In this document: in pieces, positions 29,615-53,705 of the stretch | Layout: each line of letters starts with the position of its first letter | Position numbering within the stretch: the stretch's first letter is position 1 | From: Candidatus Latescibacterota bacterium | GTDB lineage: Bacteria > Latescibacterota > UBA2968 > UBA8231 | NCBI GenBank assembly: GCA_965203355.1 | Contig: OZ241889.1 | Location: 224,001-288,000, forward strand | Length of the DNA stretch: 64,000 nucleotides | Direction: 5' to 3' | Notes under the pieces: model-generated | Databases searched by the model: none | What the model saw: only the letters and a program-made list of their open reading frames with translations | What the model was told of the DNA's origin: nothing | Made by a program: the position numbers and the translations under genes

Positions 29615-30053
29615 AACTTGCTTCCGCCTCCCGTTCCAGTTTGCCGTCCCGGACCTTTTGTACGAACGAGAACTAAAAAACCACGGAGGCGATAATCTGC
29701 TCAGGCTCGGCCTACGCATCGAGGAACTAGATAGCATCGGCGTCAATTGTGCCCTTCGCTACCGACGCGAGCAACCGCTGATTTCGCTACCGGACAGTTT
29801 TGCTCTTGCCCTTGCGGCAAGGAATGCTTGGGCCTTACTCACGGGTGATGGTGCGCTCCGTGGGTTAGCCAACAAAGAGTGCGTCAATTGTCACGGTGTT
29901 TTGTGGCTGCTAGATCGGATGTTTGAGCTTTCCGCTGCCAGCGCAAATGAGCTACATGCAGGTCTTGAAGCAATCAGCACTCACCCGCGCTGTAGGCTGC
30001 CCAAGGCAGAAATCCGCAAGCGGCTCGGGCACTGGCGACCGGAGTCTCACTAA
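29553..30053 (+). CDS. PIN-domain protein (DUF3368-like)
   Basis: VSDTSILIDL, YERE, SLPDSFALALA, LLTGDGALR, HGVLWLL; overlaps the 3' end of the upstream gene. Confidence 0.8.
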   Translation: MKMQVSDTSILIDLERGSLLETCFRLPFQFAVPDLLYERELKNHGGDNLLRLGLRIEELDSIGVNCALRYRREQPLISLPDSFALALAARNAWALLTGDGALRGLANKECVNCHGVLWLLDRMFELSAASANELHAGLEAISTHPRCRLPKAEIRKRLGHWRPESH

Positions 30054-35874: not shown

Positions 35875-35896
35875 CGGTGAGGACGCGGCGCGAGGA

Positions 35897-36246
35897 TTAC
35901 CACCCGCTGGCCGCGTAAATCGTCAGCAGCAATTCTGCATCGTCGAGCAATCGGTATTCCGGTTTCTTGCCGGACAGTCTTTCGCTGTTGCCCAAGATAA
36001 TAGGCACTCCCTCGCCGCGTTTGTCCATCAGAGTCCGGCGCTCTGTCGTCAGCCAAGGCGCGTCGGGCACCGCACACTTGGCCAGCAAGCTGCAAACCGC
36101 CTCATTCCGCACGGACTGGCGAGTGCTCTGGCGATAAATCATCCAGCCCGGCCATTGATACGGGTTGTTCGTCAAAGCGAATAAGGCGCGTCTGACTGCG
36201 CTGCTGGAACAGGCGGGCGAGAGGTTCTTTCGGGTTGTCGAACATG
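35897..36246 (-). pseudogene. Deleted/frameshifted remnant of an AlbA_2 + RecG-C-terminal (HATPase_c_4) type protein
   Basis: One frame gives LARLFQQRSQTRLIRFDEQPV; another gives RQSVRNEAVCSLLAKC...LMDKRGEGVPIILGNSERLSGKKPEY. These look like the middle and C-terminal segments of that family with the intervening part missing. Confidence 0.5.
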
Positions 36247-36430
36247 ATTTATGCCGCTTTATAGACATCATAGACATCGATATTCAACGAGTCATAGTAT
36301 ATACCTAAAAAATAAACTTAAACAATAATATATGTATTAGTAGCGAGACATAGTATGCAGCACTTGACGTAGGATCCATTTTAATCTAAATATTACCCGC
36401 TATGTTATCACAATTGGTAGAAAGTCGTCA

Positions 36431-38071
36431 ATGGGAATATTCTATGGTAGTGGTCCTGGACAGGATCTAGCTGAAGTCGTGGATCGTCTGAGCACGGACG
36501 AGTTGCACACTATATTGGGAAAAGACACCGTTTCGCTTATCGAAGCACTCGCTGGTGTCGAGGACAAAAGCGCAATGCTTCGCCGAATCACGACTGAAAT
36601 ACTACGCGATCGGGCAAACGATCTAATGGTGCGCAGCGATATCCGAGAGACTTGTTTCAACGCTATATCACCCGAAAAGCGAATCGAGCTAGCAAATCGA
36701 TTAGGTATTACGGATGTCGATACGCTTCGCACCATGAACCCGACCCAAGATGCCAAGACTTGGCAAGCCTTTCTAGGATTCTTCGGGATTGATGCACACG
36801 ACGCAGCTCCTTTTGCGATTGCCCCCCAACAAGAAACTATTCGGCCCGAATTTGGGTTGTTTCCTCATCAGCGGCTTATGGCCGACCATGTCTACGATGC
36901 CATTCAGGGAGGGCACGGGCGGGTTGTTCTCCACATGCCAACCGGTGCAGGTAAGACTAGAACAGCGATGCATATCGTTAGCCGATTTATGACTGCCTCG
37001 GAGCCGTCCGTTGTCGTTTGGTTAGCCACTAGCGCGGAGTTGCTTGATCAGGCGGCCGACGCCTTCCAAAGCACTTGGTCTCGGCTCGGCAACCGCGAGA
37101 TCGACATCCTGCGTTTCTGGGGAGATTATACCCCAAACCTGTCTAGAACTTCGGACGGCCTAATAATTGCCGGACTACAAAAAATGTATGCACTCAAGAC
37201 GAGGGACCATATCGATATTTTGCGGCTCGCGAAGTCGGTTAAGCTCGTCATTGTCGATGAGGCCCATCAAGCAATTGCGCCAAGCTATCGGGAAGTAATC
37301 GATATCTTGGCCGAAACTGGTAAAAATAATGCTCTCTTGGGTTTGACAGCGACACCGGGGCGTACATACTCAGATATTGAGGCCGACGAGCGGCTGTCTG
37401 ATTTTTTCGACGGACGAAAGGTCATGCTCAAAGTGGAGGGTCGGGACGACCCGATTTCTTTTCTTATAGAACAGGGGTATTTAGCGCATCCAACGTTCCG
37501 ACTCCTTGAGATCCAATCACCCTCTGAACTTAAGTCTCGTCTGAACAAAGTAAATGAAGGAGACGATTACGATTCGACATTACTAGAATTGCTCGCAGGA
37601 CAAGTAGGCCGAAATATCACCATTGTCGATGAAGTACGCCGCTTGATAGCAAAGGGGCACAAGAGGATAATACTGTTCGGTGCTTCCGTACGACACGCTG
37701 AGCTGTTAGCTATGGCTCTATTAGCGGTAGGAATTGATGGACGTGTTGTGACTGCAAACACAGGATCGACCGCCCGTACGCGAATCATCAGAGCATTTCG
37801 AGAATCTTCCGCAAAGCCTATCGTCCTGTGTAACTTCGGCGTCCTGACGACCGGATTTGACGCGCCGAACACAAGCGCAGCCGTGATTGCCCGACCAACT
37901 AAGTCTCTCGTGTTGTTCAGTCAGATGGTAGGCCGTGCGACACGGGGCCCCAAGGCCGGCGGCAACGAAACCTGCGAAATCTCCACTGTAATTGACACCG
38001 ACTTACCTGGATTCGGCGATATAGCCGAGGCTTTTACCAATTGGGAGGATGTGTGGCATGCCCCACGCTGA
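36431..38071 (+). CDS. SF2 DEAD/DEAH-box helicase (ResIII + HelicC)
   Basis: LFPHQ, HMPTGAGKT, VIVDEAH, LTATPGR, VLTTGFDAP, QMVGRATRG. Confidence 0.9.
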   Translation: MGIFYGSGPGQDLAEVVDRLSTDELHTILGKDTVSLIEALAGVEDKSAMLRRITTEILRDRANDLMVRSDIRETCFNAISPEKRIELANRLGITDVDTLRTMNPTQDAKTWQAFLGFFGIDAHDAAPFAIAPQQETIRPEFGLFPHQRLMADHVYDAIQGGHGRVVLHMPTGAGKTRTAMHIVSRFMTASEPSVVVWLATSAELLDQAADAFQSTWSRLGNREIDILRFWGDYTPNLSRTSDGLIIAGLQKMYALKTRDHIDILRLAKSVKLVIVDEAHQAIAPSYREVIDILAETGKNNALLGLTATPGRTYSDIEADERLSDFFDGRKVMLKVEGRDDPISFLIEQGYLAHPTFRLLEIQSPSELKSRLNKVNEGDDYDSTLLELLAGQVGRNITIVDEVRRLIAKGHKRIILFGASVRHAELLAMALLAVGIDGRVVTANTGSTARTRIIRAFRESSAKPIVLCNFGVLTTGFDAPNTSAAVIARPTKSLVLFSQMVGRATRGPKAGGNETCEISTVIDTDLPGFGDIAEAFTNWEDVWHAPR

Positions 38072-39917
38072 AGAAGCAGTTGACCAAGGAGATCTATTCG
38101 ACGCCCAGATCATTCCCGTGCGTCTAGCTATAACTGCGATGCGCGACTCTGGATATAAGAATACGGCCTATGCACTCGCGGAGTTGATCGACAATGCAGT
38201 GCAAGCCAATGCCTCAATGATTGAGGTATTCTGTATCGAAAAACGTGAGCCTCTTCAGACCCGTACACGCTCAAGGCTTTGGGAAATCGCAGTGCTCGAC
38301 AATGGATCGGGTATGGATCTCCAAGCGTTGTGGATGGCACTCCAGTTTGGTAACGGTACCCGCCTTAGTGATCGAACCGGTATTGGTCGCTTCGGCATGG
38401 GCTTACCGAATGCGTCAATCTCGCAAGCTAGGAGGGTGGACGTTTGGAGTTGGCAGAATGGGACGGCCAACGCGATAAAATCTTTCATTGACCTAGCGGA
38501 GATCGATAGGGGAGACATGAGCGATGTACCAAAGCCTGTGCATGACCCCGTGCCCGAGCGATGGAGGATGCTTTCCGATCACATCGGACAATGTGGGACC
38601 TTGGTGGTGTGGTCAAATCTAGACTTTGAAAGGCTAACTTGGAAGAGTAGTAAAAGTGCTCTAAGGCACACCGAAAGAATCGTAGGCCGTGTATATAGAC
38701 GCTTCATATCAGATAAAAAAGTAACAATTAGGCTATATGCGATGGAGGATGGTGCCGATGATAAGCCGATTTTCGATCGGGAAACCTCAGTAAATGATCC
38801 ACTTTACCTTGTTCCTGTGGAAGAATTACCCTCCCCATTCAGTAAGCAACCGATGTTCACGCATGTTTTTGATGATCCTTATGATATAGAGTATGATGGG
38901 AAGGTGCATACGGTAAAGACTCGCTATTCAGTAGCGTCTGAGGATACAATAACCGAAGCTGGAGTTGGTGATCGTGGACAAACGAAATATGGGAAACATG
39001 CCCAAGGAAACATGGGCGTTTCGGTCCTCCGTGCAGGGCGTGAGATCATGATCGACCATGGGTGGTGTATCGGTTATGATCCGAGAGAACGTTGGTGGGG
39101 TGCAGAAGTGGAATTCCCTCCCCAACTCGACGAGGTATTTGGAGTGACAAACAATAAACAAGCAGCGACCCACTTTGCCGAGTTGGCTACGATGGAATGG
39201 CAAGAACTCGCGGAAGAAGGTGAACAATTCATTGATGTCGTGAAACGCCTGAAAGAGGATAGAGACCCCCGTGGATGGTTACTCGGCCTGAGCGATAGCA
39301 TTAAGCGGAATCTCAAGAGATTGCGCGGGATAGTCAACGGACAAGGCGCGGGAAGACGGTCAAGCGGACGGACACGTCATGCCGTCGATGATGCCACGAA
39401 GACTGTCAATGAGAGATGGAAGGAGCGATCCAAGGAACAGCCTTTAGAAGAGGACAAAAAATCGCCAACGGAAAACGACCTTAACTATATTCGTACCGAT
39501 CTTACTAAAAATAAGAAGTACAGTGACTCGGATGCAGAAGAACTCGTATCTCTGATCAGAGATACGGAGCTGAAGGTGGTATTTCTCGAAGCAGACTTTC
39601 CCGATCCTTTTAATCTCTTTAATGTAGAGATGAAAGGAAATATTACAGAAATAACATTCAATAGGAAGCATCCTGCTTTTGACTATATCTTTGGTACGAT
39701 CAAGACCGCCGACGAGGACGTACGTAATCTTTCTCAAGAAGAAGTAATAGAACGCTTAACAAGAGCTGTCAACGCCGGAAAGATCATCTTCGCAGCGTGG
39801 GGACGTTATGAAAGAGAAGCAGGGGTTGATCGCGTTAAAGCTCTTCAGAAGGTTCGACTTGAATGGGGACAAATCGCGGCACAGTTTCTAGATCAGGACG
39901 ACAATCTCTCGCTATAG
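38058..39917 (+). CDS. GHKL/MORC-family ATPase (HATPase_c_3)
   Basis: AMRDSGYKNTAYALAELIDNA, VLDNGSGMD, GIGRFGMGLPNAS, GTLVVW; RBS GGAGGA upstream of MPHAEE; overlaps the helicase stop. Confidence 0.9.
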   Translation: MPHAEEAVDQGDLFDAQIIPVRLAITAMRDSGYKNTAYALAELIDNAVQANASMIEVFCIEKREPLQTRTRSRLWEIAVLDNGSGMDLQALWMALQFGNGTRLSDRTGIGRFGMGLPNASISQARRVDVWSWQNGTANAIKSFIDLAEIDRGDMSDVPKPVHDPVPERWRMLSDHIGQCGTLVVWSNLDFERLTWKSSKSALRHTERIVGRVYRRFISDKKVTIRLYAMEDGADDKPIFDRETSVNDPLYLVPVEELPSPFSKQPMFTHVFDDPYDIEYDGKVHTVKTRYSVASEDTITEAGVGDRGQTKYGKHAQGNMGVSVLRAGREIMIDHGWCIGYDPRERWWGAEVEFPPQLDEVFGVTNNKQAATHFAELATMEWQELAEEGEQFIDVVKRLKEDRDPRGWLLGLSDSIKRNLKRLRGIVNGQGAGRRSSGRTRHAVDDATKTVNERWKERSKEQPLEEDKKSPTENDLNYIRTDLTKNKKYSDSDAEELVSLIRDTELKVVFLEADFPDPFNLFNVEMKGNITEITFNRKHPAFDYIFGTIKTADEDVRNLSQEEVIERLTRAVNAGKIIFAAWGRYEREAGVDRVKALQKVRLEWGQIAAQFLDQDDNLSL

Positions 39918-39935
39918 GATTTGGAGAAGTAGGTT

Positions 39936-40844
39936 ATGATCGCGGACGGCGAGCGCCTGAAGGAGCTCTTAGAGAAAGCTGAGCACCGAGTAATTTTGTG
40001 CGCTCCATTCATTAAAGCGGCAGTGCTACGGACTATTCTATTAGTCGTGCCCGAGACAGTACCAGTAAAGATTGTCACGAGGTGGCGAGCAACCGAAATC
40101 GCTGTAGGAATAAGCGACCTTGAGGTGCTACAGATTGCGACCGACAGGCCGCACACTGAGCTTTGGCTATTGGATGATCTCCATGCCAAACTCTACATTG
40201 CAGATGATAAGTGCCTTGTGGGATCTGCCAATTTGACGGCGAGTGCTTTAGGCTGGTCAAAAAACAGCAATATAGAACTTCTGATTTCAGCAAAGTCAAC
40301 TGATTCTGATATCGCCTTTCTTTTAGAGCAACTTGAAGCAGCGGAGCTTGCAACTGTCGCGACTCGTGCAAAAATTGAGGCAATGGTAGCTAATCTCAAA
40401 GAGACAAGACTCGAAGAAGGGGAAGACATGACGGATGAAAGTTCAGTCCGTCAATTGGCTTGGCTGCCCCGTTGTGCAGCCCCAGACAAGCTCTATGAGA
40501 TTTATCGAAACTCGGAGACAACAGTTGTAGTGGAGGGCACTAAGGAGGATGGCCTTGCAGATCTAAGGGATCTGCAGATTCGACCTGGGCTCCCGGCAAT
40601 GACTTTCAAAGACAACGTACGGAACACCCTTCTCTTGATGCCTGCATTCGCTCGAATCATTGAGGATGTGCCCCAAAGTCTTACGGATGCCGAAGGAACT
40701 GCACGGGTCGAGGAAGCTCGTCCTGACTTGGATGAGCAAGATGCGAGAGAACAATGGCGTATTGTACGGGACTGGATTGAGAGCTTCTTTGGAGACATGT
40801 TTGAGGTAGCTCCAGCATCGTTTGTCACTCGTCTGAGATCATGA
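39936..40844 (+). CDS. Phospholipase D-like (single HKD) nuclease-domain protein
   Basis: ILCAPFIK, LHAKLYIAD, VGSANLT, NIE. Confidence 0.85.
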   Translation: MIADGERLKELLEKAEHRVILCAPFIKAAVLRTILLVVPETVPVKIVTRWRATEIAVGISDLEVLQIATDRPHTELWLLDDLHAKLYIADDKCLVGSANLTASALGWSKNSNIELLISAKSTDSDIAFLLEQLEAAELATVATRAKIEAMVANLKETRLEEGEDMTDESSVRQLAWLPRCAAPDKLYEIYRNSETTVVVEGTKEDGLADLRDLQIRPGLPAMTFKDNVRNTLLLMPAFARIIEDVPQSLTDAEGTARVEEARPDLDEQDAREQWRIVRDWIESFFGDMFEVAPASFVTRLRS

Positions 40845-40972
40845 TATTAATATCAAAAAAAAGTATCTAGTTGTCTTCGAGTACCGAACTGTCCTACCCA
40901 TCATCTAAATCCCCTCGTAGTCCAATTGTGTTTATAGCTTATAGCCTCCGTCAAATTCAAAGGCCCCTTCTC

Positions 40973-41776
40973 TCAAAGATGACAAATAGCGCACCCGTCC
41001 AAGTCCTCCCCAGCGGGCACCTCATAGCGCTTTTCTAACTTTTCGACGTCCTCTAGGGAGCGTCCATTTACCCAAGTATACTTTCTTCCACTCTCCTCTT
41101 TCTCGTAGTCCTTGGCCTTCTCAAACAATTCGGGATGGTTCTCCTTGAGTCCCTGCCACTCTCCAATCTGTTGATAGAAGCAAAAATAACACCCCGATCT
41201 TGAACGCCAGCGATAGTAAGGGGGGAGTCCGAGACCTGATTGATCGAGTAGTCCCTTCACTTCTTCTAAGCCGATACCATCCTCTTTGAACGGATATATA
41301 GGAATGATATTATTCGCCTCAGAGAGCATAACTGGTTTGCGCTGCTGATAACCTGTGCGCTGCTCGTCTGCCCGAATGCCTATATAGGTATAGGCGCGAT
41401 CATTTCCTATTTCTCGCTCAAAGGGTTTAATCTTCAACACACGCGTACACCAACGGGCCTGTGGGCTAGGGAGAAAGCCGCCGTAGTACTCCTTGAGATA
41501 AACATCGAACGGCTTGCGATCTTCCTTTTCTCGGATACCCAACATCCCAAGAACGTTTAAGCGCTTGACCTCAACACTAAAAATCGCCTCAAATCGTTCA
41601 ATGTATTCGTAGGTCTCCTTCAGTTCCGCTCCCGTATCGCAGAATATGAACTCAAGGTCTAGCTGCGGATAGTTTTCCAAGAGGTAAATGCCGAGCGCGG
41701 TGGAATCTTTACCGCCCGAAAATGAAACCACATGGCGAGCATCGGTATCCTGAAGCGCATCCTTCATCAGAGTCAT
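40973..41776 (-). CDS. sspD: PAPS-reductase-family ATP pyrophosphatase, SspD/DndC-like
   Basis: SFSGGKDS PP-loop, FCDTGAE, RWCTRVLK, GIRADE, RSRSGCYFCFYQ, C-terminal CAICH; last gene of an sspABCD-like operon. Confidence 0.8.
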   Translation of the reverse strand: MTLMKDALQDTDARHVVSFSGGKDSTALGIYLLENYPQLDLEFIFCDTGAELKETYEYIERFEAIFSVEVKRLNVLGMLGIREKEDRKPFDVYLKEYYGGFLPSPQARWCTRVLKIKPFEREIGNDRAYTYIGIRADEQRTGYQQRKPVMLSEANNIIPIYPFKEDGIGLEEVKGLLDQSGLGLPPYYRWRSRSGCYFCFYQQIGEWQGLKENHPELFEKAKDYEKEESGRKYTWVNGRSLEDVEKLEKRYEVPAGEDLDGCAICHL

Positions 41777-41782
41777 GGCCTG

Positions 41783-44700
41783 CTAACCTCCTGCCAATTC
41801 GGAAATCCCGTCCCGCTCGTTGGTCCGGGATTGAAGTTGGTCAATCAACTCGGCGCGAGCATCCGGCGCAAGCATCCGGTCGAGCTTGCTGAACAGATAC
41901 TTAATGCGGCGTTCGAGAAGGGGAGCCGCCGAGGGGCTTATTATTTCTGCCTCAAGGAGTCCCTGTTCTGCTCTCGTGACGACCTCTCGAAGGCGATCTG
42001 CAAATTCTCGCAGGCTCGCATCATCCCAACGATCAAGCCCTTTCCCAAGCAAGATCATACTCAACGCACGTGCAAAAGAAGCCTCCGTATAACGGCCATT
42101 TGTTGCTTCAGCCGCACGGGTAAGAATGGCACGAGAGGTGGCGTCAAGATCAGACGAGGAAATCGCTTCATCACTGAAACATGCCGACCACTCTTTTGCC
42201 CGGTGTAGCGCATTGCCGGGAGAATTAGGAGCAAGAGCTAAGAAGTCGTGGATTATGGCGATGGCCTTTGCAGTATAACCATCAACGATGCCTTCTAATT
42301 CTTGGCGAAGAGCGGCCACGCCCTCTAAAGTGTCGTCATCCGGCAAAAGAGTACCCGTCAGTTTGGGAAACTTCTCCAAGGCCAAGACAGCGGGATCGTT
42401 TGTTGTGCGAAGAACGGCTTGGAAGGAACGAGCCTCGGGGCCGACTTCGCGAGTGGTTAGTGCTGGAGTAGGTAACTGGGCCTTCCAGCTTTCAAGAGCA
42501 TCATAGAATTGGCGGATCAAGTCGCCATGATGAGGCGGCATCCCACCGAACTGTTCAATTAAGTCTCGTAAGTACCTAGTTTGGAACGCATCAACCTCCA
42601 GAACATCAACTGAGAATTCGTCTGGAGTCGAGCAGAAATCTTCAATCTCACTAGCGAGGATGTCGGCGAGATATGAACCATGACGTCGAATGACAACAGC
42701 CCGACCAAAGGCTTGTAGCCCCGCCGCAACTAGGATGGGCAGTGTGGCTTTACGGGTTCCATGCGGTGGTCTTTCAAGTGATTCAAGAAAAGCTGCCGGT
42801 GATTTCTCGGAGCTAGGCGTAGTAAAAAAATCTTTAAGCTGCTGCCAAAGCTCCGCTAGGCCACGCTCTCCGATCTCGGCTGGTGCCGCCCAACCCCAGC
42901 CCGTGTCTTTCGTCCGGTACAGTCCTGTGCGCTCTAGCACCGTTCGGTACAAAGCAACATCCGGTGTCGTAGCTTCTATATCAAAACCAAGATGTGGTTT
43001 CCCAGATCGTTCCAGAATTCCTAGGATCAGCTTTTTGCGTGCATTCACCATTGGTCGGCTGATTTTTTCCCTAACGATGAGTTCGTTGTTTATGCGGGGA
43101 GTACTTGGGAACCGTTCATCGGCGAGTTCGGACAACCTCTCGCGCAACTCGCCTTCGTTGCGGACCGATAACTCTTGTCCTTTAGAAAACCAAGTGAGGC
43201 CGTTCGAGCTAGGGCTGACAATCCGCGACACAATGTGCGCTAAGTGTTCTTGGGCAGCATCAATCATGTACTTAATCTCAGGCTCTATGAAGGGATCAGT
43301 CGCAATAAGCTCGTAATTTTGTCCCAAGCTCCTTAATGCCATAATCTCTAATGCAATATCCAGCGTTTGCGTCGGATGCTCTGGGACTACAAGAATAACC
43401 CCTGAGTCAAGCGAAGATAGCTCCCGCACGAAAGAGCGTAGCTCAAGGATTTCTTCGCTCGTCTCGACAAGGCAATAAACAACGCGCCCGTCTTCACCAG
43501 CCCCCAACTGCAACAGTGGATGCCCTACACCTTCTCGCAGCAGATCGTTTGCAGATGCGTATGCACCGGCGAAAAAACGTCGAATGCGGTTCTTCACGTT
43601 ATGGGCAACGGGTCGCCAATAAGGTGGCGGATGCTCTTTTGACAGAATCTCAACAATGTTGAGTTCCAAGCTAATGCGGAGCTTTTCTTCCTCCAAATGG
43701 GCGCGTAGATCAACATCGGTTCCATGCCAAACCGAGATGTCGTCGTTGCGTTGTCGGTAGAGCAGTAGGTTTCGGTCGATCAGGCCATCAATGGTTTGCT
43801 CAATAACAGCATGGGAGGAATCATTGAACTCAGTGACAGCAAACCTGAGAACATCTTTGCGGACGCGCACACGTTCACCAGAAATGCCAAGCCCAAGAAG
43901 GGCCGCCGCCGCTATGATTTCGCTTTCTTCCTTAGTAGCTGCCTTTGAGAGAGCACTTTCGCTTTCAAGCCATCTACGATGTGTCCCGCCGATTCCCGTA
44001 TCGGCTTCCATTGCCTCTGAAAAATATCGGTACAGATCATGCAGAGTTTGCGACTGACCTAGATCGGCCTCTCGCAAGAAGGAAAAGACCGTTCGCTCAT
44101 TTTGTGCGAGCCGAGCCGCTACCCGAGGTAGCATGTGAAGAGCGGCCGGATGCAAAGGGTAAGCACTTCTTAGAGTTTGTGTGAGCTTCCCCTTATTTCC
44201 AAACGACTCAAACAAGCCCAATTCCAGCGCTCTTTCCGCTATCTTCTCACTAGCTTTAAGGGTCAGAGGCCGACGAATATCGCGCGATTGTTCGATCACT
44301 GAGGCGATCAATTCGTACATCTCCCGACTGTCTTCGACATAGCGGACCAATCCGAAGCGGCCCTCAATTTTCCGCCAACTGTTGCGTGCGGCTTGGCTCA
44401 GATTGCCAACATAGTGAAAGAAGGTCTGGTGTAATAGGATAGTGAATGTCGCGGTAGGTTCATCCTGTCGAGAAGCCCATTCAGCGATCTGTTGGACTTC
44501 GGAAAGAACTTCCGCATGTCCAGAAGAAGCAAGGGTTTCAAGATGCCGACCAAACTCATCCCATATTATTGAAATACGGTCGCGGCCTTGTGTATGTGCC
44601 CTTTGAGAGATTGCGTCTAAAATGTGAAGAATCTCGCCGTTGTGCCGACGTGGCTTCCGAAAATATCTGAGTTGCTGTTTCGCCTGCTCAATAATAGCAC

Positions 44701-45064
44701 CAGCAAGATCAGGTTGGTACCCTTCAAGGACGATAGTTAGCCCTTGGGTGCGACTTTTTATGCGAGTTTTAACAATAGCGCTAAGTTGTTTATCAACAGC
44801 GGCGAGACGTTCGCTAATTACGGAGAGCACCTTTCGCGCTGAGGGTGAGTTCTCGACCGCCATGGTCGCTATTCCGGTAGCCAGCGATTTCCCAGAACCA
44901 TACGCAGCGACTACCATCGAAGCGGCAGCAGGCTTTCCATCAAGTACCGCTTGGATGACTTGGGTACTCTTCTTAGTGGGATAGAAATGTGAAAATCGCT
45001 CGGGATGGTCCCTGTCGAGGAGCAGACTGATCGACTTAAAAAAACGGTCTGTTGTACCTATCAT
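41783..45064 (-). CDS. sspC: Large P-loop ATPase, SspC-like
   Basis: Walker A AAYGSGKS, Walker B IIWDEFG, WRKIEGRF, YPLHP, AQNERTVFSFL; ATGA-coupled to the DUF4007 gene. Confidence 0.75.
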   Translation of the reverse strand: MIGTTDRFFKSISLLLDRDHPERFSHFYPTKKSTQVIQAVLDGKPAAASMVVAAYGSGKSLATGIATMAVENSPSARKVLSVISERLAAVDKQLSAIVKTRIKSRTQGLTIVLEGYQPDLAGAIIEQAKQQLRYFRKPRRHNGEILHILDAISQRAHTQGRDRISIIWDEFGRHLETLASSGHAEVLSEVQQIAEWASRQDEPTATFTILLHQTFFHYVGNLSQAARNSWRKIEGRFGLVRYVEDSREMYELIASVIEQSRDIRRPLTLKASEKIAERALELGLFESFGNKGKLTQTLRSAYPLHPAALHMLPRVAARLAQNERTVFSFLREADLGQSQTLHDLYRYFSEAMEADTGIGGTHRRWLESESALSKAATKEESEIIAAAALLGLGISGERVRVRKDVLRFAVTEFNDSSHAVIEQTIDGLIDRNLLLYRQRNDDISVWHGTDVDLRAHLEEEKLRISLELNIVEILSKEHPPPYWRPVAHNVKNRIRRFFAGAYASANDLLREGVGHPLLQLGAGEDGRVVYCLVETSEEILELRSFVRELSSLDSGVILVVPEHPTQTLDIALEIMALRSLGQNYELIATDPFIEPEIKYMIDAAQEHLAHIVSRIVSPSSNGLTWFSKGQELSVRNEGELRERLSELADERFPSTPRINNELIVREKISRPMVNARKKLILGILERSGKPHLGFDIEATTPDVALYRTVLERTGLYRTKDTGWGWAAPAEIGERGLAELWQQLKDFFTTPSSEKSPAAFLESLERPPHGTRKATLPILVAAGLQAFGRAVVIRRHGSYLADILASEIEDFCSTPDEFSVDVLEVDAFQTRYLRDLIEQFGGMPPHHGDLIRQFYDALESWKAQLPTPALTTREVGPEARSFQAVLRTTNDPAVLALEKFPKLTGTLLPDDDTLEGVAALRQELEGIVDGYTAKAIAIIHDFLALAPNSPGNALHRAKEWSACFSDEAISSSDLDATSRAILTRAAEATNGRYTEASFARALSMILLGKGLDRWDDASLREFADRLREVVTRAEQGLLEAEIISPSAAPLLERRIKYLFSKLDRMLAPDARAELIDQLQSRTNERDGISELAGG

Positions 45065-45951
45065 CGTCCTGCTCCAAGGTAGTACTTCTTCAGCCAACCA
45101 GACAGCGACAACCCTCTTACTCTGACGAAGCGTTCACCTCCAAGAGTATGCGTGTGAATCAGCTCTGTCCCGAGTGCTTCTTCAGCCTCACCTAGGAGAT
45201 TAATCAACGCATCCGCATCTAAGGCCAATGTTCTTCCTGGACATTTAGGCTTGGCTATAGCTTCCGATAAATTGAGATCAAAAGAGTCGCCGCTATCTTC
45301 GTCTTCTGGCAATGCTTTAGCGAAGGCGTATCCAATGATCTCGAACGGAATAGCTTTTTTGCGGCGATTTAGCTGATAAGTGTCTGACTCACGCAGATAC
45401 GTGATCAGCCCTAGTAACCGGAACGGACACTCATGGCCGTCTTCGGGATCCTCCTGAGTGGGAGGGATCGGTGTCGCGTAACTTGACAATAGACACGCTA
45501 TATCCCGTGAGATCGTCTTTGGACTAGGGAGGCGTTGTCCCTGGACAACAAGTTGCCGCCGGAGGTCTTCCGAACAGCGGATACGGTCGAAGCGCCCATG
45601 CGAGAACTGATTAAAGAACCAATACCATGCAACGGCATCGATCCCACATGTTACCAAATTGACGTGTAACACCCACCAAGTGCCGAGGCGCAAGAAATAG
45701 GGGTCGTATTGCTGAATGGTTCTGCCGATAGGGGTGATGGCCGATGAACCACTGCGACCGTTTTTCGTTGTTTCTACAAGACCTGTTACCTGTAGCCAAT
45801 GCCGAATCGACTTGGCCATATTGCGACCAACGCCTAGGTAATCGGATACGAATGGGTCCTTAAAAGCGTCCGCGTCTTCCTTGAGAAGCTCGAGGCCCTT
45901 AACGAGCCAATCTTCTCGCACCGCGAAAGTTTCGTGTCCGCCAAATCTCAC
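45061..45951 (-). CDS. sspB: DUF4007-family protein, SspB-like nickase
   Basis: FGGHETFAVREDWLVKG, LGVGRNMAKSIRHWL, DPYF...TWWVLH, WYWFFN, CPFRLLGLI. Confidence 0.82.
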   Translation of the reverse strand: MRFGGHETFAVREDWLVKGLELLKEDADAFKDPFVSDYLGVGRNMAKSIRHWLQVTGLVETTKNGRSGSSAITPIGRTIQQYDPYFLRLGTWWVLHVNLVTCGIDAVAWYWFFNQFSHGRFDRIRCSEDLRRQLVVQGQRLPSPKTISRDIACLLSSYATPIPPTQEDPEDGHECPFRLLGLITYLRESDTYQLNRRKKAIPFEIIGYAFAKALPEDEDSGDSFDLNLSEAIAKPKCPGRTLALDADALINLLGEAEEALGTELIHTHTLGGERFVRVRGLSLSGWLKKYYLGAGR

Positions 45952-45957
45952 AGTTGC

Positions 45958-47103
45958 TTACCCAGTCAGCCGTTCCAGTGCAAGTAAGCGTTGATAGACT
46001 AAACAGACCGCTTCTGCGGCCTGCTTGGCTTCTTCAAGCGAGTTGAGCACCGAAAAAGAGAACCGAACGCTTGCGAAGGCTTGATCTTCTGTTAGTCCCA
46101 TGGCAAGCAATACATGAGAAGGTTCGGGGCGCTGGCTCACGCAGGCAGAGGTCTGCGAGCAAATGATACCCACCTGATCAAGTTGGGCCATAAGAGCCAT
46201 GCCTTCTACGGACGAAAAATGAATGTTAGAGGTATTGGGAACGCGATTACTGCGATCTCCATTAATATGAAGCCCTAGCGCAGACCCTGCAAGATGGTCC
46301 TCAAATACTCCTCTTAGGGTCTCAAGATGTGTTATCGCCTCGTTTAGCTGGCGAGAGCGGACATCGGCAGCTATACCGAAACCAATGATCCCTGGCAGAT
46401 TTTCGGTGCCTGGGCGCATCCCACTTTCCTGATCTCCGCCGAAGAGCAAGGGAGAGAGTAGGTTTTCTTGCTTGCTGCAAATCGCGCCAATTCCCTTCGG
46501 ACCGTGAATCTTGTGTGCGGTGAACGTCATAAAATCAATGGGAAGATCGGGCAACGAGATTGGAACGCGACCAATTGCTTGCGCCGCATCGACATGAAAC
46601 GGCACTAGACGCCGGCGGCAAATTTCACCTAGTGCCTCAATCGGTTGTACGGTGCCGGTTTCGCTATTTGCCCACTGAACGGACACAAGGGTCGCTGGCT
46701 CCTCTAGAGCAACTTCAAGGCTATGTGGACTGACCCGACCAAGCTGATCTACTGGTAGAATAGTGACCTCTACGTCCGCATCTTGCAGAGCTTGGGCCGT
46801 CTTCAAGACAGACGAGTGTTCAATCTCCGTCGTGACGAGCCGGGTTCCCTGCTTATGTGAACAGATGCTTTGAAGAACGAGGTTATTGGCCTCCGTTCCC
46901 CCCGAAGTGAACAGAATCTGTTCCGACTCTGAACCAACGAGACTAGCGACGCGATGGCGGGCCTCGGACAGGGCCTCGCGAGCATCCGCGCCAAGTTGAT
47001 GCGGACTCGATGGATTCCCGTACCTAGTCGTCATCAACTCGACGACCGCATCGACCACTTCCGGCAAGGAGCGCGTCGTGGCGTTGTTGTCCAAGTAAAT
47101 CAC
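45958..47103 (-). CDS. sspA: Cysteine desulfurase (IscS/DndA/SspA-like)
   Basis: IYLDNNATT, GNPSSPH, FTSGGTEAN, HVDAAQ, TAHKIHGPKG, SQTSAC; first gene of the operon. Confidence 0.85.
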   Translation of the reverse strand: MIYLDNNATTRSLPEVVDAVVELMTTRYGNPSSPHQLGADAREALSEARHRVASLVGSESEQILFTSGGTEANNLVLQSICSHKQGTRLVTTEIEHSSVLKTAQALQDADVEVTILPVDQLGRVSPHSLEVALEEPATLVSVQWANSETGTVQPIEALGEICRRRLVPFHVDAAQAIGRVPISLPDLPIDFMTFTAHKIHGPKGIGAICSKQENLLSPLLFGGDQESGMRPGTENLPGIIGFGIAADVRSRQLNEAITHLETLRGVFEDHLAGSALGLHINGDRSNRVPNTSNIHFSSVEGMALMAQLDQVGIICSQTSACVSQRPEPSHVLLAMGLTEDQAFASVRFSFSVLNSLEEAKQAAEAVCLVYQRLLALERLTG

Positions 47104-47882
47104 TTCAGCTTTCCTCTAGCCCTCACCCCCGGCGGCATAAAAAACTCGTACTGCTCCGGCGTGCCGTAGCCTTCCATCTCCGTCAGCCGCACCCCGGTGC
47201 TGTTGAGCGCCGCCTCGACGATCCGCTTGTTAAAGGTGCTGACGTTTTCCTCGGCCAGATAGTCGCCCACCGGCATCCACAGACACTCGGCAATCTCGTC
47301 CTCTTGGATGCTAATCTCCGTGCTCAGAGGGCGCAGGCGGCAGACGAAGTAAATATCCGACTTGCCATAGCGGTAGCCGTGCCAGTGGCGAAAGCAGACC
47401 AGCGCGTCGAACTCGGTCTCGACTCCGGTCTCTTCGGAGACTTCGCGCACCACGGCTTCGGCCAAGTGCTCGCCCGCGTGGAGCGCACCCCCGGGCAACT
47501 TGTAGCGCGGCGGGCCGGGCGCACGTCGATGGTACTTTTCGCTGACCACTAGCAGTTCCCGCGCCTCGTTGAGCACCACGCCGCCCGCGCCGATATAGTG
47601 CGAAGCGTGGGCCGGCACATAAGCACCTTCTTCGAGTTGCAAGGTCATCATTAGATAGCCATCGCCGCTGTGGTGGAATGTAAAACCGACTTCCGCCGCT
47701 ACCGGGATCAACGCCGCCTTGGCAATCGGCACTTCCAGCCAGACGACCCGGTAGCCTTCGCCTGCCCAAGCCGCCAGCGAAACGCGCAGCCGCTCGGCAA
47801 ACGCCGCCGGGTTTGGGTCGAGAGCCTCTGGTTTGGGAATGATGCCGCCGAATGGATTGGTTGTTGCCGCAATAGGTTCCAT
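47100..47882 (-). CDS. Nudix hydrolase (NUDT6-like, with N-terminal domain)
   Basis: SLAAW..EG.RVVWL, GFTFHH, HYIGAGG, LPGG...AVVREVSEETG, FRHWH; host-like high GC. Confidence 0.85.
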   Translation of the reverse strand: MEPIAATTNPFGGIIPKPEALDPNPAAFAERLRVSLAAWAGEGYRVVWLEVPIAKAALIPVAAEVGFTFHHSGDGYLMMTLQLEEGAYVPAHASHYIGAGGVVLNEARELLVVSEKYHRRAPGPPRYKLPGGALHAGEHLAEAVVREVSEETGVETEFDALVCFRHWHGYRYGKSDIYFVCRLRPLSTEISIQEDEIAECLWMPVGDYLAEENVSTFNKRIVEAALNSTGVRLTEMEGYGTPEQYEFFMPPGVRARGKLK

Positions 47883-50775: not shown

Positions 50776-52198
50776 CGTAGCGCTCCAGACGCGCCAGCGC
50801 CTCGCCGCTATCCAGCGCCTCCCGCGCTTCGGCCAACCCCTCTTCCGCACTCGCACTTAGACCCAGATAGTAGTCGGTCAGGCCAGCGTTGAGTACTATG
50901 CGATCGCAAACAGGCCCGGGTTCGCCCTTGAGGGCCGCCACGCCCATAGCGGCAAAAGCCTGCGCACTCACCTCCGCCGGACGCGGACTTTGCTCGTAGC
51001 GAAAGCCGTAAGCCGCCGGATCCACATCGCAGCTAACCATCTCCCGCTGGCTCCCAACCCGGCGGAATCCCTGCACGTAATTGATCGCCTTGCGCCGAGC
51101 GTCCGAGGGCTTGCCCAATCGCAACCCATAGTGGCTGCTCCCCTCCTCGCCCTTGATCACCAACCCCGCGTCCAAGCCGCGTTCCTGCATCAGCCCCAAC
51201 AGTTTGTCCTCGTAGCCGGTGTGGTAAAAGCCCGCGACCATGCCGTTCCAAGCCGCGCCGGAAAACAACTGCTGTGCCTTCTCGGTGGTGGCCCAAGGCG
51301 GACGCTTGGCAATGTGGGTACGCAAATGGCGCAACGCGTACGCACGGGGAGCGTACTCGCGCTGACTCACATACGCGAACCCAATGGACGGGTCTTCAAT
51401 GCAGCGGGCCGCTGTCGCCAGCGGCAGATCGACCCGCGCCCCCAAGGCCGCTAGCACCCCCTCCTCGGTGACTCCGCGCTTGGGCGGCATTTCGGCGACG
51501 CTGTGCAGCACAGTCGCCCGGCCCAAGGCCGCGCGCACGGCCGCAACGAAAAGCGTCGGGCGAAAATAGCGGGCGGCGCCGTCAAAAGGCTGGCCAAAAT
51601 GCAGCAGCGAATCGACTTGGACCCGTGGCGATTCTTCCGGGCGATGCACCGCGTCGAGATGAGCGCGAACTTCTTCTTCATTTTCGATGTTCATCCGCTG
51701 GCCGATCAAGAACGCGGCCATCAGCGAGGGGCGCACTTGGCCTGCTAGCATGGCTTCGAGCGCACCGCGCACTTCTTCGTAGCGCAAGTGCCCACCCTGC
51801 AAAACCGGGCGCAGGGCCGCAACCACCTGCGCTTCACCCGCGTCGCAAGCCGCGAAATCAGGTGCTATCCCCAATAGGAAGCGCAAATCCTCGGGCATCT
51901 GCGCCAGCGCATCTCCGTAGCGGTCAAACGCCTCGATCTCGGCTGCGCTCCAACCGGTCTGTGCGCCGAAGGTGCGGCGGATGGACATGGCCGCGAAAAA
52001 CGAGCCCATCTGGGCCGGGGAAACCTGCTCTGCGCCAGGTAAGGCCCCCTTGAGGGAGGCAAAAATCAGCTCCAGAATCCGCTTAGGGTCTGGGTCGCCT
52101 TCTTTTTTGCCCAGCGGGCGACTCTGATGCGGCCCAGTACAGACGCGCACCTGCGCGTCCAACACTTCCTCGTTGGGGCCGGGATAGGGGTCGGGCAT
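50750..52198 (-). CDS. Anthranilate phosphoribosyltransferase-like (glycosyltransferase family 3) protein
   Basis: AAFLIGQR, PFDG..R, PPKRGVT, KRPPWATTEK, KGEEGS, IVLNAG; lacks the canonical TrpD GTGGD motif. Confidence 0.65.
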   Translation of the reverse strand: MPDPYPGPNEEVLDAQVRVCTGPHQSRPLGKKEGDPDPKRILELIFASLKGALPGAEQVSPAQMGSFFAAMSIRRTFGAQTGWSAAEIEAFDRYGDALAQMPEDLRFLLGIAPDFAACDAGEAQVVAALRPVLQGGHLRYEEVRGALEAMLAGQVRPSLMAAFLIGQRMNIENEEEVRAHLDAVHRPEESPRVQVDSLLHFGQPFDGAARYFRPTLFVAAVRAALGRATVLHSVAEMPPKRGVTEEGVLAALGARVDLPLATAARCIEDPSIGFAYVSQREYAPRAYALRHLRTHIAKRPPWATTEKAQQLFSGAAWNGMVAGFYHTGYEDKLLGLMQERGLDAGLVIKGEEGSSHYGLRLGKPSDARRKAINYVQGFRRVGSQREMVSCDVDPAAYGFRYEQSPRPAEVSAQAFAAMGVAALKGEPGPVCDRIVLNAGLTDYYLGLSASAEEGLAEAREALDSGEALARLERYVNQSQAAR

Positions 52199-52257
52199 GG
52201 GTTTTTAGGCTCCTGTCCGAGTCGAGCAATTCAACGCAGGCATTCGGGAATCGGCAA

Positions 52258-52316
52258 TCTTGGAAATTATTCCATGCCATATATGCGATATATAGCCGTC
52301 TTGGAAATTATTCCAT
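52258..52316. promoter_or_regulatory. Two identical 18-bp boxes, each containing a TGGAA-N4-TTCCA palindrome
   Basis: TCTTGGAAATTATTCCAT at 52258-52275 and 52299-52316 (41-bp period) in a divergent intergenic region. Confidence 0.65.
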
Positions 52317-52411
52317 ATATTTTTTGAGAGAAAGCCCGCTATACAACTTTTGGCGATTAGCATTCCGATCTGCAAAGACAACATTTTTCTTTCATAAAAA
52401 GAGAGACGCCC

Positions 52412-52618
52412 ATGAGTCTTATGCGATTTATCCGGTTGGCGTTGCACAGTCCCAAGGTTACAACTCGCACCGAGGAGGACAAACGCCTAGCCGACCGACG
52501 CATCGTTAGTCGCCTATCGAATGGCAATATTCGCTTGCAGCGCGGCGAGTACGTCACGCGAGAAGACATCGAGGAACAATATGAGCGTGTCAAGTCCTTC
52601 AACTTCGACGGAGAATGA
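52412..52618 (+). CDS. Small hypothetical protein
   Basis: 68-aa ORF with a GAGAG-like RBS; overlaps the downstream gene. Confidence 0.5.
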   Translation: MSLMRFIRLALHSPKVTTRTEEDKRLADRRIVSRLSNGNIRLQRGEYVTREDIEEQYERVKSFNFDGE

Positions 52619-53201
52619 TGCTCCTTATCGCATTGGCGACCTTCGCGCCCGATACGATACCGCAGATAAATTCGCACGCGAGGTCGCCGAGTTTCGATTC
52701 GAGATACCGATTCCCGCGTACAACGAGCTTCGATACGCAGGCTACCACCTTCTACAATCACTAGACGACAGCGGAGCCATTTCCAGCAACGAGCAATTAC
52801 GCAGAGCTATTTCTCATTGTGAAAGAGCGATGTACGAAGCCGCAGAGGCCGGCATAATCTCGGTGCTAGATTCGATAGATCAATTCCGAAAGGACTACAA
52901 GAATATCGTCGTCAAAGATGTCGTTGATAACTATGCCAGTATCGTCGTGCAGGCTCGAGATGCACAAGACCTACTCGCTCGTGGGCGGTCGGATCGACTA
53001 TCGTCGTCAGAGCGGGTTTCTTGTTACATGGAAACGTTTCGACAACTGCGTACCGCCAGCGCAACGCTCGAGGCTAGTCGCGACGATCTTAACGCCAAGC
53101 TATCCGAACAAGTAAGAGACAAAAGGCGATTCATTGTTCGCTGCCTGCTGATTCTGCTCGGAATTGCCGTTGCGGCAGCGGGTGTAGCGATCGGCGTGTA
53201 A
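52581..53201 (+). CDS. Hypothetical helical protein with RxxxxH-like motif and C-terminal TM helix
   Basis: RBS GAGGA before MSVSS; YNELRYAGYHL, AISHCERAMYE, coiled coil, C-terminal LLILLGIAVAAAGVAIGV. Confidence 0.65.
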   Translation: MSVSSPSTSTENDAPYRIGDLRARYDTADKFAREVAEFRFEIPIPAYNELRYAGYHLLQSLDDSGAISSNEQLRRAISHCERAMYEAAEAGIISVLDSIDQFRKDYKNIVVKDVVDNYASIVVQARDAQDLLARGRSDRLSSSERVSCYMETFRQLRTASATLEASRDDLNAKLSEQVRDKRRFIVRCLLILLGIAVAAAGVAIGV

Positions 53202-53285
53202 ATGGCCCTGAAGCCCGTGTTTTGAAACCGGCTGGCAGCCAACTTCCATCTCGAGCATCTACTCCCCCCTTACCCCTAGGAAATT

Positions 53286-53693
53286 ATGCGCTACTTGTCT
53301 TTTCTGTTTCCCATTGCAATCGCAGCTTGCGGCTCGCCTGAGCCAGTACCTCCGGCACTGCTCCACTACGTCGCGGCCCAAGAGGCTTTGGCCGCCGACG
53401 ATCTAGACCGAGCGCGCCAGGCCCTGCAAGACTTGGTGCAAAGCGCCAGCCCAACGCTCAAACCGCTGGCGGAAAAAGCCGCAAGGTCCGCCGATATTGC
53501 CGCAGTGCGCAGTGCGTTCAAGCCGCTGTCCGAACAAGTGCGAAAGGGTCAAATTCCCGAGGGCTACGTCGTGGCGTATTGCCCGATGGCCGACGAAAAT
53601 AAAGGGGCGCACTGGGTGCAGAAGGACCAGCCTCAAATCGCCAATCCATATTTCGGTGCTTCCATGCTCCGCTGCGGCGTCTTCAAGGAGTAG
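53286..53693 (+). CDS. DUF3347-like metal-binding lipoprotein
   Basis: Lipobox IAAC; YCPMA...GAHW, NPYFGASMLRCG. Confidence 0.75.
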   Translation: MRYLSFLFPIAIAACGSPEPVPPALLHYVAAQEALAADDLDRARQALQDLVQSASPTLKPLAEKAARSADIAAVRSAFKPLSEQVRKGQIPEGYVVAYCPMADENKGAHWVQKDQPQIANPYFGASMLRCGVFKE

Positions 53694-53705
53694 CCCGGCC
53701 CGCAC

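Follow-up and report, generated by a model that had tools for sequence, protein, structure and literature searches.

Positions 224,001 to 288,000 of contig OZ241889.1 from a Candidatus Latescibacterota bacterium (assembly GCA_965203355.1) were analysed as one window of 64,000 nucleotides, and the positions given below are counted from its first letter. According to the list of open reading frames (ORFs) of the window, a low-GC island at 36431-47103 consists of seven intact genes. Four of them, sspA, sspB, sspC and sspD, lie on the minus strand and code for a DNA phosphorothioation (PT) module of the Ssp type. They converge on three plus-strand genes for a superfamily 2 (SF2) helicase, a MORC-type GHKL ATPase and a phospholipase D (PLD) family protein with a single HKD motif, referred to in the following as the triplet. 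Comparisons with defence models, with other genomes and plasmids and with a sister genome suggest that the island is a two-module PT restriction-modification system. The features are:

36431..38071, plus strand: SF2 helicase (RadD / type I-III Res-like), 546 aa
38049..39917, plus strand: MORC-type GHKL ATPase, 622 aa as the longest ORF (database copy P0001, 619 aa)
39936..40844, plus strand: predicted single-HKD PLD-family nuclease, 302 aa
40845..40972, no strand: AT-rich convergent spacer between the PLD gene and sspD, 128 bp; in the sister genome the island is split here and carries an insertion sequence (IS)
40973..41776, minus strand: SspD, phosphoadenosine phosphosulfate (PAPS) reductase-like sulfurtransferase, 267 aa
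41783..45064, minus strand: SspC, large BrxC-like ATPase, 1093 aa from the ATG at 45064
45061..45951, minus strand: SspB, DUF4007 protein, 296 aa
45958..47103, minus strand: SspA, cysteine desulfurase, 381 aa

Both operons are tightly packed. Gaps of 6 bp separate sspA from sspB and sspC from sspD, and sspB and sspC overlap in an ATGA. The sspC ORF would extend over 41783-45097 if begun at a TTG, but the ATG at 45064, preceded by GGAG and overlapping the sspB stop codon, is the likely start. The helicase and GHKL genes overlap by 23 nt and the GHKL and PLD genes are 18 nt apart. At the other end of the island, the GTG start of sspA overlaps the stop codon of an upstream Nudix gene by 4 nt. In 1-kb bins between 36 and 47 kb the GC content was 0.48-0.535, compared to 0.60-0.65 in the flanks; the means were 0.495 for the triplet, 0.514 for the ssp operon and 0.63-0.64 for the flanks. 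The first-pass annotation of this DNA had described a tight minus-strand operon with 6-bp gaps or an ATGA overlap, including an ATPase of about 1090 aa, convergence on a plus-strand helicase-MORC-PLD operon and a composition of all seven genes richer in AT than the flanks. The coordinates, the start of sspC, the intact ORFs and the GC values bear out this description.

A scan for promoters and terminators called no terminator-like site in the convergent spacer, and the promoter-like sites were of consensus level only and thus uninformative. With regard to the island borders, no tRNA gene was present anywhere in the 64-kb window and the flanking direct repeats were only short and chance-like. 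At the left edge of the island, about 480 bp (35877-36361) had no DNA homology to the sister genome. A minus-strand ORF of 126 aa in this segment (35897-36277) showed a weak match to HATPase_c_4 (E 1.2e-05) and is possibly a gene remnant.

Protein profiles were taken from PADLOC 2.0, NCBIfam 20 and Pfam, with PADLOC matches accepted up to an E value of 0.01. The PADLOC scan covered 40 ORFs of the window, namely 39 of the 53 non-overlapping ORFs of at least 100 aa and one extra ORF; the 14 ORFs outside the scan belong to clear metabolic Pfam families. All four modification proteins were recognised. SspA matched the PADLOC models for SspA (E 2.9e-127) and DndA (8.6e-126) and Pfam Aminotran_5 (E 3.4e-73). 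The DUF4007 protein was assigned to SspB over its full length (PDLC02762, E 4.2e-112; Pfam DUF4007, E 1.3e-59), and the large ATPase to SspC (E 1.9e-145, residues 17-1044 against profile positions 3-1049 of 1054) with a further match to BrxC (E 2e-56). SspD was identified by its PADLOC model (E 2.9e-89) and by Pfam PAPS_reduct. The earlier assignment of gene order and domain content to SspA-SspB-SspC-SspD is therefore upheld by full-length PADLOC matches with E values of the order of 1e-89 or lower and by the agreement of Pfam. Expression of IscS together with SspBCD in Escherichia coli gave PT-linked d(CpsC) dinucleotides (Wang et al. 2021, PMC8092258). By analogy to the family, for which this function is established, SspABCD of the Latescibacterota island presumably installs PT on the host DNA.

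The helicase of the triplet was assigned to Pfam ResIII (E 1.3e-25), DEAD and Helicase_C. Its closest solved relative by sequence is RadD (6jde, E 6.8e-39), followed among others by a type I R subunit and SauUSI (7clg, E 1.2e-14). The best PADLOC match was to the helicase part of PbeA (profile 246-616 of 672, E 3.1e-21). Walker A (G172-x-G174-K175-T176), the D276-E277-A278-H279 box and motif VI (Q498/R502/R505) were invariant in 40 helicase sequences. The N-terminal domain (residues 1-135) is variable, with a mean pairwise identity of 25% compared to 54-55% in the conserved motor core.

The second protein of the triplet combines a GHKL domain with an S5-like transducer; its C-terminal region is uncharacterised. 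The protein matched Pfam HATPase_c_3 (E 1.5e-19), and its solved sequence relatives were chains of human MORC2 only (E 2.2e-07). The AlphaFold2 (AF2) model, with a mean predicted local distance difference test (pLDDT) score of 68.9, resembled the ATPase modules of MORC2/3/4, SMCHD1, MutL and Hsp90 (Foldseek E 1e-12 to 1e-10). The Bergerat motifs, comprising E42/N46 of the N-box, D81-x-G83-x-G85 and G108...G115, were invariant in 17 sequences. The family is large, with 4,381 matches in a set of 8,000 scored candidates. A large representative protein library yielded 564 clusters (50% identity) at E <=1e-30. The top 120 homologues were 63-100% identical and 606-641 aa long. One homologue (P0113, 620 aa, 63% identical) is filed under a transcript name of the eukaryote Chromera velia, possibly through bacterial contamination or transfer. 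A complex prediction for the GHKL and PLD proteins gave scores of 0.00, 0.35 and 0.00, which speak neither for nor against an interaction.

The third protein comprises a nuclease domain (residues 1-156; Pfam PLDc_2 and PLDc) with one HKD motif, of which H83, K85, G96, S97 and N99 were invariant in 45 sequences. In the AF2 model (mean pLDDT 90.2) this domain was most similar to the PLD domains of SauUSI (Z 16.2), Nuc (14.3), NucT (14.2) and BfiI (13.6). PLD domains of this kind are nuclease-type single-HKD domains that act as dimers. The C-terminal domain (residues 170-302) is a helical/winged-helix domain with a terminal hairpin. Its structural matches over 126-132 aligned residues were 3bhw (Z 7.9), the recognition region of N.BspD6I (7.5), BrxA (7zge, 6.8), SspB (6juf, 5.7), FokI (5.7) and winged helices of the ArsR type. 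This gives a lead, based on the predicted model, to a tandem helix-turn-helix (HTH)/winged-helix DNA reader, a family of which is described in PMC12839542 and PMC10853773. A search of the ESM Atlas with the C-terminal domain of the PLD protein and the C-terminal region of the GHKL protein returned unnamed clusters or low scores only. The C-terminal domain has a mean pairwise identity of 30% compared to 41% in the N-terminal domain. Together with the helicase N-terminal domain it is thus the most variable part of the triplet, which fits specificity or interface modules.

None of the three proteins had a PADLOC match to SspE, SspF, SspG, SspH, DndF/G/H, PglZ or BrxL. Likewise, the models for SspE (PDLC02786, which is included in PADLOC), SspF/G/H, PglZ and BrxL were without a match among the 40 scanned ORFs of the window, in line with the earlier observation that an SspE-like gene, PglZ and BrxL are missing. 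As a positive control, the three genes that follow sspD on an Azospirillum plasmid matched SspF (E 1.9e-183), SspG (9.3e-153) and SspH (E 0). The models thus respond to a genuine cluster, which makes the negative result for the triplet meaningful. The best PADLOC matches of the triplet were partial and weak: PbeA (3e-21) for the helicase, the N-terminus of MzaB (8e-15) for the GHKL protein and a ZacB/DrmC-type PLD (2e-11) for the nuclease. NCBIfam bit scores were far below the respective cut-offs (RadD 108 of 720, dnd_restrict_1 52 of 600, MzaB 66.7 of 850, DrmC 30 of 133). For the GHKL protein, MzaB was the sole family match in PADLOC and NCBIfam, and it was confined to the N-terminal ATP-binding region. 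The comparison with SspF/G/H and with named stand-alone systems, which the first-pass annotation had proposed, accordingly returned nothing beyond partial, weak matches. RefSeq lists the three proteins under the generic names 'DEAD/DEAH box helicase', 'ATP-binding protein' and 'phospholipase D family protein'.

Several assignments were rejected on this basis. Mza, Azaca (ZacB), DISARM (DrmC), Mokosh, Hachiman, Dpd and a type I R subunit were dismissed since their matches were weak and partial. An effector of the SspE type was rejected for want of an SspE match in the scanned ORFs, and one of the SspFGH type since no member of the triplet matched SspF/G/H at E <=0.01. The PbeABCD/CxC-ABC system was not accepted because only the helicase part of PbeA was matched, the PLD is encoded by a separate gene and PbeB/C/D had no match among the scanned ORFs. 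For BREX type 4, the matches to BrxC and BrxP were only secondary to those for SspC, SspD and SspB, and no PglZ or BrxL was present among the scanned ORFs. A type IV enzyme of the SauUSI type was discarded since PLD and helicase are separate genes with the MORC gene between them and no SRA-like domain was found; the likeness to SauUSI is limited to the PLD and motor domains. The triplet does have the hallmarks of a MORC-centred operon, as the GHKL and S5 ATPase carries invariant ATP-binding motifs and is encoded next to an SF2 helicase and a nuclease. The DNA methylase partner of such operons was not present in the island (PADLOC, Pfam). The conserved partner of the triplet is sspBCD rather than a methylase.

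This partnership was evident from species-representative genomes. Relatives of the GHKL protein were confirmed by tblastn in 389 cases, and the best 80 loci were analysed for the presence of the other genes by tblastn with the window proteins at a coverage above 0.4. The helicase was detected in 77 of the 80 loci, the PLD in 73, SspD in 68, SspB in 60, SspC in 57 and SspA in 51. Among the 59 GHKL loci with at least 8 kb of sequence on both sides, 55 had SspD within 10 kb; the four others were L001, L054, L057 and L080. SspD was also found in 13 of the 21 loci with short flanks, and some ssp gene in 14 of them. Six of ten tested genomes without adjacent ssp genes had a DUF4007 (SspB) gene elsewhere; the genome of L007 was outside the ten. 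Carriers belong to at least nine phyla according to the tree labels, in addition to cyanobacterial and Bacteroidota plasmids, and include the cultured organisms Pannonibacter phragmitetus (plasmid p.BB_2), Roseobacter litoralis and Trichormus variabilis.

The arrangement of the two modules varies. SspD shared the strand of the triplet in 42 loci and was encoded on the other one in 26. The commonest layout (27 loci) has sspA on the minus strand, divergent and upstream of a co-directional array sspB-C-D-helicase-GHKL-PLD, in which a few hundred bases separate sspD from the helicase gene. Six loci had the same sspBCD-helicase-GHKL-PLD array with no detected sspA. The convergent layout of the window was present in 11 loci and a convergent layout with sspA on the other strand in eight.

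The same association was found in an independent collection of 72,556 plasmids. GHKL matches occurred on 19 plasmid records. The query was covered to 80% or more in 13 of these, of which 12 had an identity of at least 36%. All 12 plasmids with such a full-length GHKL homologue carried SspD within about 12 kb, as established by accession and coordinates for 11 of them and by annotation for H5. The thirteenth plasmid GHKL protein (Nocardiopsis, 26% identical) was not among the 60 SspD matches listed. SspD as such was present on only 72 of the 72,556 plasmids and SspF on 37. The co-occurrence of GHKL and SspD was significant (Fisher p = 3.5e-37), with the reservation that the records are not independent. 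The linkage to sspBCD, which the first-pass annotation had left to be scored, is therefore strong in both collections.

Whereas sspBCD and the triplet are constant, the contents of the slot between them vary. Recurrent cassettes (L004, L044, L053, L061 and L070, from sspD to the helicase or PLD gene; L022 and L039; L040, L062, L066 and L071) comprised an unknown protein of about 173 aa with a DndB-family protein of about 420 aa, a GmrSD_N (NsnA-like) protein with SIR2, and a protein of about 783 aa with two GHKL domains and HEF_HK, together with an unknown protein of about 664 aa. Methyltransferases or IS elements also occupied the slot. In a variant from genome G004 (L090 10242-13715, L095 116-1198, G004:C14), a divergent helicase (24% identity) and GHKL protein (39%) directly followed sspBCD. 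This pair was not counted as a member, as the third gene codes for a protein of 360 aa which is not a PLD and belongs to no Pfam family. In the Fischerella locus L080 (7766-11806), the GHKL protein is accompanied by a shortened helicase and an HNH protein, with neither PLD nor ssp present.

A sister genome provided evidence on the fate of the two modules when separated. L001 is located on the chromosome of a Latescibacterota metagenome-assembled genome (MAG) with a DNA identity to the window of 89% in the left flank and 86% in the triplet, which occupies the same site beside a 2-hydroxyacid dehydrogenase gene. The homology to L001 extends as far as 40845, where the PLD gene ends, and that to a second locus, L087, starts at 40843. 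At the latter, the orthologous Nudix-sspA-B-C-D block lies about 1.87 Mb away on the same chromosome, with amino acid identities of 96, 94, 90, 91 and 97%. Two copies of a 1231-bp IS, 99.9% identical and in opposite orientation, abut the PLD gene and sspD, respectively. Near-identical IS copies at both breakpoints indicate that an IS-mediated rearrangement split the island within the spacer. All seven genes are intact in both genomes (dN/dS 0.05-0.23, dS 0.25-0.53) and indistinguishable from the flanking genes (dN/dS 0.07-0.20, dS 0.23-0.44). Both modules are thus under purifying selection even when apart. Maintenance by selection in spite of separation is expected for a coupling via a DNA mark rather than via co-transcription.

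The borders of the sister island showed further rearrangements. The last ~53 codons of the Nudix gene are duplicated (79% amino acid identity) directly upstream of sspA (window 47100-47260; L087 4297-7171), and the intact Nudix gene is separated from the duplicated 3' copy by about 1.9 kb that are low in GC (0.50) and contain three unknown ORFs. This duplication marks the Nudix 3' end as an apparent site of insertion or recombination on the border of the island. Just past the IS beside the triplet, L001 encodes a PDC-M01A/B pair (14477-17025), a Septu PtuA-like ATPase and its partner, which makes the site a defence island in the sister genome. The sister genome also has a second ssp cluster, L086 (G001:C1:6398000-6416000), with sspA-B-C-D at a host-like GC content of 0.60. 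These genes are followed by a 708-aa PbeC/DndD-like ABC ATPase (PADLOC PbeC, E 4.5e-52) and small ORFs, a combination of Ssp and Pbe type.

The ssp genes of the window are affiliated with a lineage linked to SspFGH. SspB, SspC and SspD were 47%, 48% and 72% identical to those of the Azospirillum plasmid cluster, in which they are linked to SspFGH, and shared the best PADLOC sub-models with them. The nearest plasmid SspDs (54-72% identical) were followed by SspF in five of six cases, according to annotation for H20 and H21 and to adjacent coordinates for H23, H24 and H25; H22 was not among the five SspF matches listed. In a maximum-likelihood tree of SspD, the window protein grouped with the sister copy, two SspFGH-linked clusters and the Latescibacterial L005, with a support of 99 in the Shimodaira-Hasegawa-like approximate likelihood ratio test (SH-aLRT). 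A separate clade of 62 sequences (support 100) held 60 triplet-linked SspDs and two from genomes with a triplet elsewhere, and the label 'triplet' required four changes on the tree. The presence of an SspFGH-type ssp lineage beside the triplet suggests that the effector modules are interchangeable. As the triplet is combined with several Ssp lineages, it appears to recognise something common to them, for which the PT mark is the obvious candidate. The SspFGH-linked clusters on the Azospirillum and Microvirga plasmids continue with a gene (L091 21609-23648; L092 22380-24329) annotated as 'DNA phosphorothioation-associated putative methyltransferase', for which no PADLOC match was obtained.

Taken together, we assign a probability of roughly 60% to the reading that the island is a two-module PT restriction-modification system in which the triplet serves as the cognate effector in place of SspE or SspFGH. 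The first-pass annotation had already proposed an alternative restriction or effector module, and comparative genomics now supports this proposal; a defence function and the dependence on PT are what we infer from sequence and gene context. The mark would act in trans, so that the modules need not adjoin and the effector could be exchanged between Ssp lineages.

A mechanism can be outlined from the properties of the parts. Single-HKD PLD nucleases must dimerise, SF2 motors of the ResIII type translocate on DNA and GHKL/MORC ATPases dimerise on ATP. In the proposed system, the PLD subunit would bind DNA via its putative C-terminal tandem HTH/winged-helix module and the SF2 motor would translocate along the DNA. 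The MORC ATPase, dimerised on ATP, would clamp or loop the DNA, and this clamp would join two single-HKD PLD subunits into one active site. DNA devoid of PT would be nicked or cut, while PT on the host DNA would prevent licensing. Site or mark recognition may reside in the C-terminal domain of the PLD protein, in the N-terminal domain of the helicase or in both.

The following observations weigh against this interpretation. The pairing in the window is atypical, as sspABCD belongs by sequence to a lineage normally paired with SspFGH and the island is a hybrid in this respect. Across the 80 loci the modification proteins were only distantly related to those of the window (SspB 23-32%, SspC 21-39% and SspD 39-58% identity), compared to 41-79% for the GHKL protein, 43-87% for the helicase and 28-91% for the PLD. 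The SspD tree was the product of a quick search with long-branch warnings for L005, L091 and L092. No DUF4007 gene was found in the Fischerella genome, whose locus L080 has full flanks and no PLD, nor in three fragmentary MAGs among the ten genomes tested. In the sister genome, the L086 ssp cluster could equally supply the PT mark. A relaxed Pfam scan of the helicase N-terminal, the GHKL middle and C-terminal and the PLD C-terminal regions recognised no PT-reading domain. The likeness of the modelled PLD C-terminal domain to BrxA, SspB and FokI is middling (Z <8) and may reflect a common helical arrangement only, and its homology to SspB was rejected at the sequence level (hhalign probability 0.3%).

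The main alternative to PT-protected restriction is an activation like that of SspE, and the present data fit both. The triplet would again be coupled to Ssp, but binding of PT would stimulate its ATPases and turn on the nuclease against PT-free DNA, leaving it harmless in cells that lack the modification. SspE is described as PT-stimulated (PMC13251355, PMC8092258), and SauUSI, which among solved proteins comes nearest to the helicase and PLD parts, is activated by recognition of a modified base (10.1101/2025.10.16.682607). Co-occurrence with ssp fits this model as well as it fits classical restriction. Yet the triplet has no PT-sensing domain of the DUF262/DndB type in PADLOC and Pfam, and at many loci a separate DndB-like gene lies between ssp and the triplet, so that sensing or regulation is perhaps supplied apart. 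We consider an SspE-like activation rather unlikely.

The affiliation of the window SspD with SspFGH-linked clusters, outside the main triplet-linked clade, would also be expected if two orphans had come to lie side by side, with sspABCD having lost its SspFGH and the true partner of the triplet being another ssp cluster. The sister genome offers such a cluster in L086, the SspD of which is sister to that of the triplet-linked L008 (SH-aLRT 99), and a second ssp cluster may be present outside the window in its genome, too. However, the low GC content is shared by both modules of the island (0.495 and 0.514), whereas the ssp genes of L086 are host-like (0.60). Both modules also show flank-like synonymous divergence and were adjacent before the IS-mediated split. 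Besides, a helicase and a GHKL gene also adjoin ssp genes from the clade of the window at the Latescibacterial L005, and the pairing of the triplet with several SspD lineages elsewhere makes swaps normal for this module. Such a juxtaposition of orphans is unlikely.

The triplet could also be a stand-alone MORC restriction system, either type IV-like or independent of modification, with ssp nearby merely through the clustering of defence genes in islands. Operons of MORC and SF2 helicase genes with various nucleases, mostly beside DNA methylases, are reported in PMC2292703, the helicase and the PLD resemble the type IV enzyme SauUSI, and SIR2, GmrSD_N, DndB-like and IS genes share a variable defence slot that separates ssp from the triplet. 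The observed co-occurrence is nevertheless far above that of island clustering, with 55 of 59 loci and 12 of 12 plasmids set against SspD on 72 of 72,556 plasmids, and the commonest layout is co-directional with sspD close to the helicase gene. The sole non-fragmentary genome examined that is devoid of ssp is that of L080, where the PLD gene is missing. We regard a stand-alone system as very unlikely.

It is highly improbable that the triplet is an accessory of modification or repair, for instance in SspBCD loading or in the processing of PT-insertion nicks, for although the best curated match of the helicase is the repair helicase RadD and MutL-like GHKL ATPases, seen among the fold matches, act in repair, the triplet was present on only 12 of 72 SspD-positive plasmids, its invariant nuclease-type HKD site, to which the restriction PLD domains of SauUSI, BfiI, NgoAVII and Nuc are most similar, fits an effector better, and IscS with SspBCD alone sufficed for PT in E. 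coli (PMC8092258).

The proposed PT restriction by a helicase-MORC-PLD effector has counterparts among known systems. SspE is a single protein combining a DUF262/DndB-like NTPase with an HNH domain. SspABCD-SspE has the Ssp modification in common with the present island, and in both a nuclease effector encoded nearby, here a putative one, would rely on PT to tell self from non-self. SspABCD-SspFGH has the same modification module, and both systems place a three-gene effector cassette beside sspBCD (PMC8092258). The effectors themselves are unrelated: in the same source SspF is described as a Walker A protein, SspG is without annotated similarity and the C-terminus of SspH is FtsK/SpoIIIE-like. 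The Azospirillum SspF, SspG and SspH are 614, 535 and 1771 aa long.

Operons of a MORC-type GHKL ATPase, a Rad25/ResIII-like SF2 helicase and a nuclease, few of them with HKD, were predicted as restriction-modification systems by Iyer, Abhiman and Aravind (2008, PMC2292703). The statement of the first-pass annotation that MORC ATPases occur in restriction-like loci agrees with this source. The operons of 2008 have DNA methylase partners and the HKD domain as an N-terminal fusion to the helicase (PMC2292703), whereas the PLD described here is a separate protein with a DNA-binding-like domain. PMC2292703 has zero occurrences of phosphorothio, PAPS, DUF4007 and cysteine desulfurase. Its figure legends name Nitrococcus mobilis, Erythrobacter sp. 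and Marinobacter sp., taxa which also carry the present module (L033, L022 and L015, respectively) and in which the genes may be the same.

PbeA of PbeABCD, the HKD and SF2 helicase protein of CxC-ABC systems and SauUSI likewise combine an HKD nuclease with an SF2 helicase, and Pbe is linked to PT of the Dnd type (PMC10853773). In these proteins PLD and helicase are one polypeptide with no MORC partner, and PbeB/C/D (CxC ABC ATPase, DndE-like) are absent from the scanned ORFs of the window. SauUSI is in addition a type IV enzyme that depends on modification and has an SRA-like reader. The defence systems Tiamat and Mza contain prokaryotic GHKL/MORC-like ATPases with antiphage roles (10.64898/2026.09.30.754977). 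They differ from the triplet in that the match to MzaB is N-terminal only, no other Mza component was found and Tiamat had no match in PADLOC. Later analyses of PT and BREX systems treat HKD with SF2 (PbeA), SspB/BrxA/DUF4007 and Ssp, and no MORC partner appears in their accessible texts (PMC10853773, PMC12839542). The word 'MORC' does not occur in PMC12839542, nor do 'MutL' and 'histidine kinase' in PMC10853773. The open-access main texts contained no paper naming a helicase-GHKL-PLD partner of Ssp, although an earlier mention elsewhere is possible. What appears to be new is the link of a MORC-helicase-HKD module to Ssp; the prediction of such operons as similar to restriction-modification systems and the parts themselves were already known.

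Two regions outside the island were conspicuous in the window. At 28466-30053, a gene with HTH and Peptidase_M78 domains (PADLOC RmrA, E 4.6e-51) overlaps an ORF of 170 aa with no family match, within a region where GC dips locally to 0.51 (28-29 kb). The two are probably a small separate defence or toxin-antitoxin-like pair. A second GC dip (0.52) at 52001-53700 includes the ORFs 52521-53201 and 53286-53693, which had no Pfam or PADLOC match.

Of 2,678 sspBCD clusters, 2,211 are devoid of both SspE and SspFGH, and PMC8092258 proposes further restriction partners for them, while also asking whether they are orphans. The triplet is a concrete and common answer for part of these partnerless clusters. 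Being absent from the models of PADLOC 2.0 and NCBIfam 20, it leads current defence-finding programs to score such loci as ssp with no effector. The balance tips slightly towards helicase-MORC-PLD being a third, widespread and unnamed class of Ssp-coupled restriction, in which a MORC ATPase would enforce a backbone mark and PT would be read by interchangeable effector cassettes. If this is true, it would be the first link of a MORC-type clamp ATPase to PT-based self-recognition, and prokaryotic MORCs would gain a defined epigenetic context, in parallel to the silencing roles of their eukaryotic counterparts.

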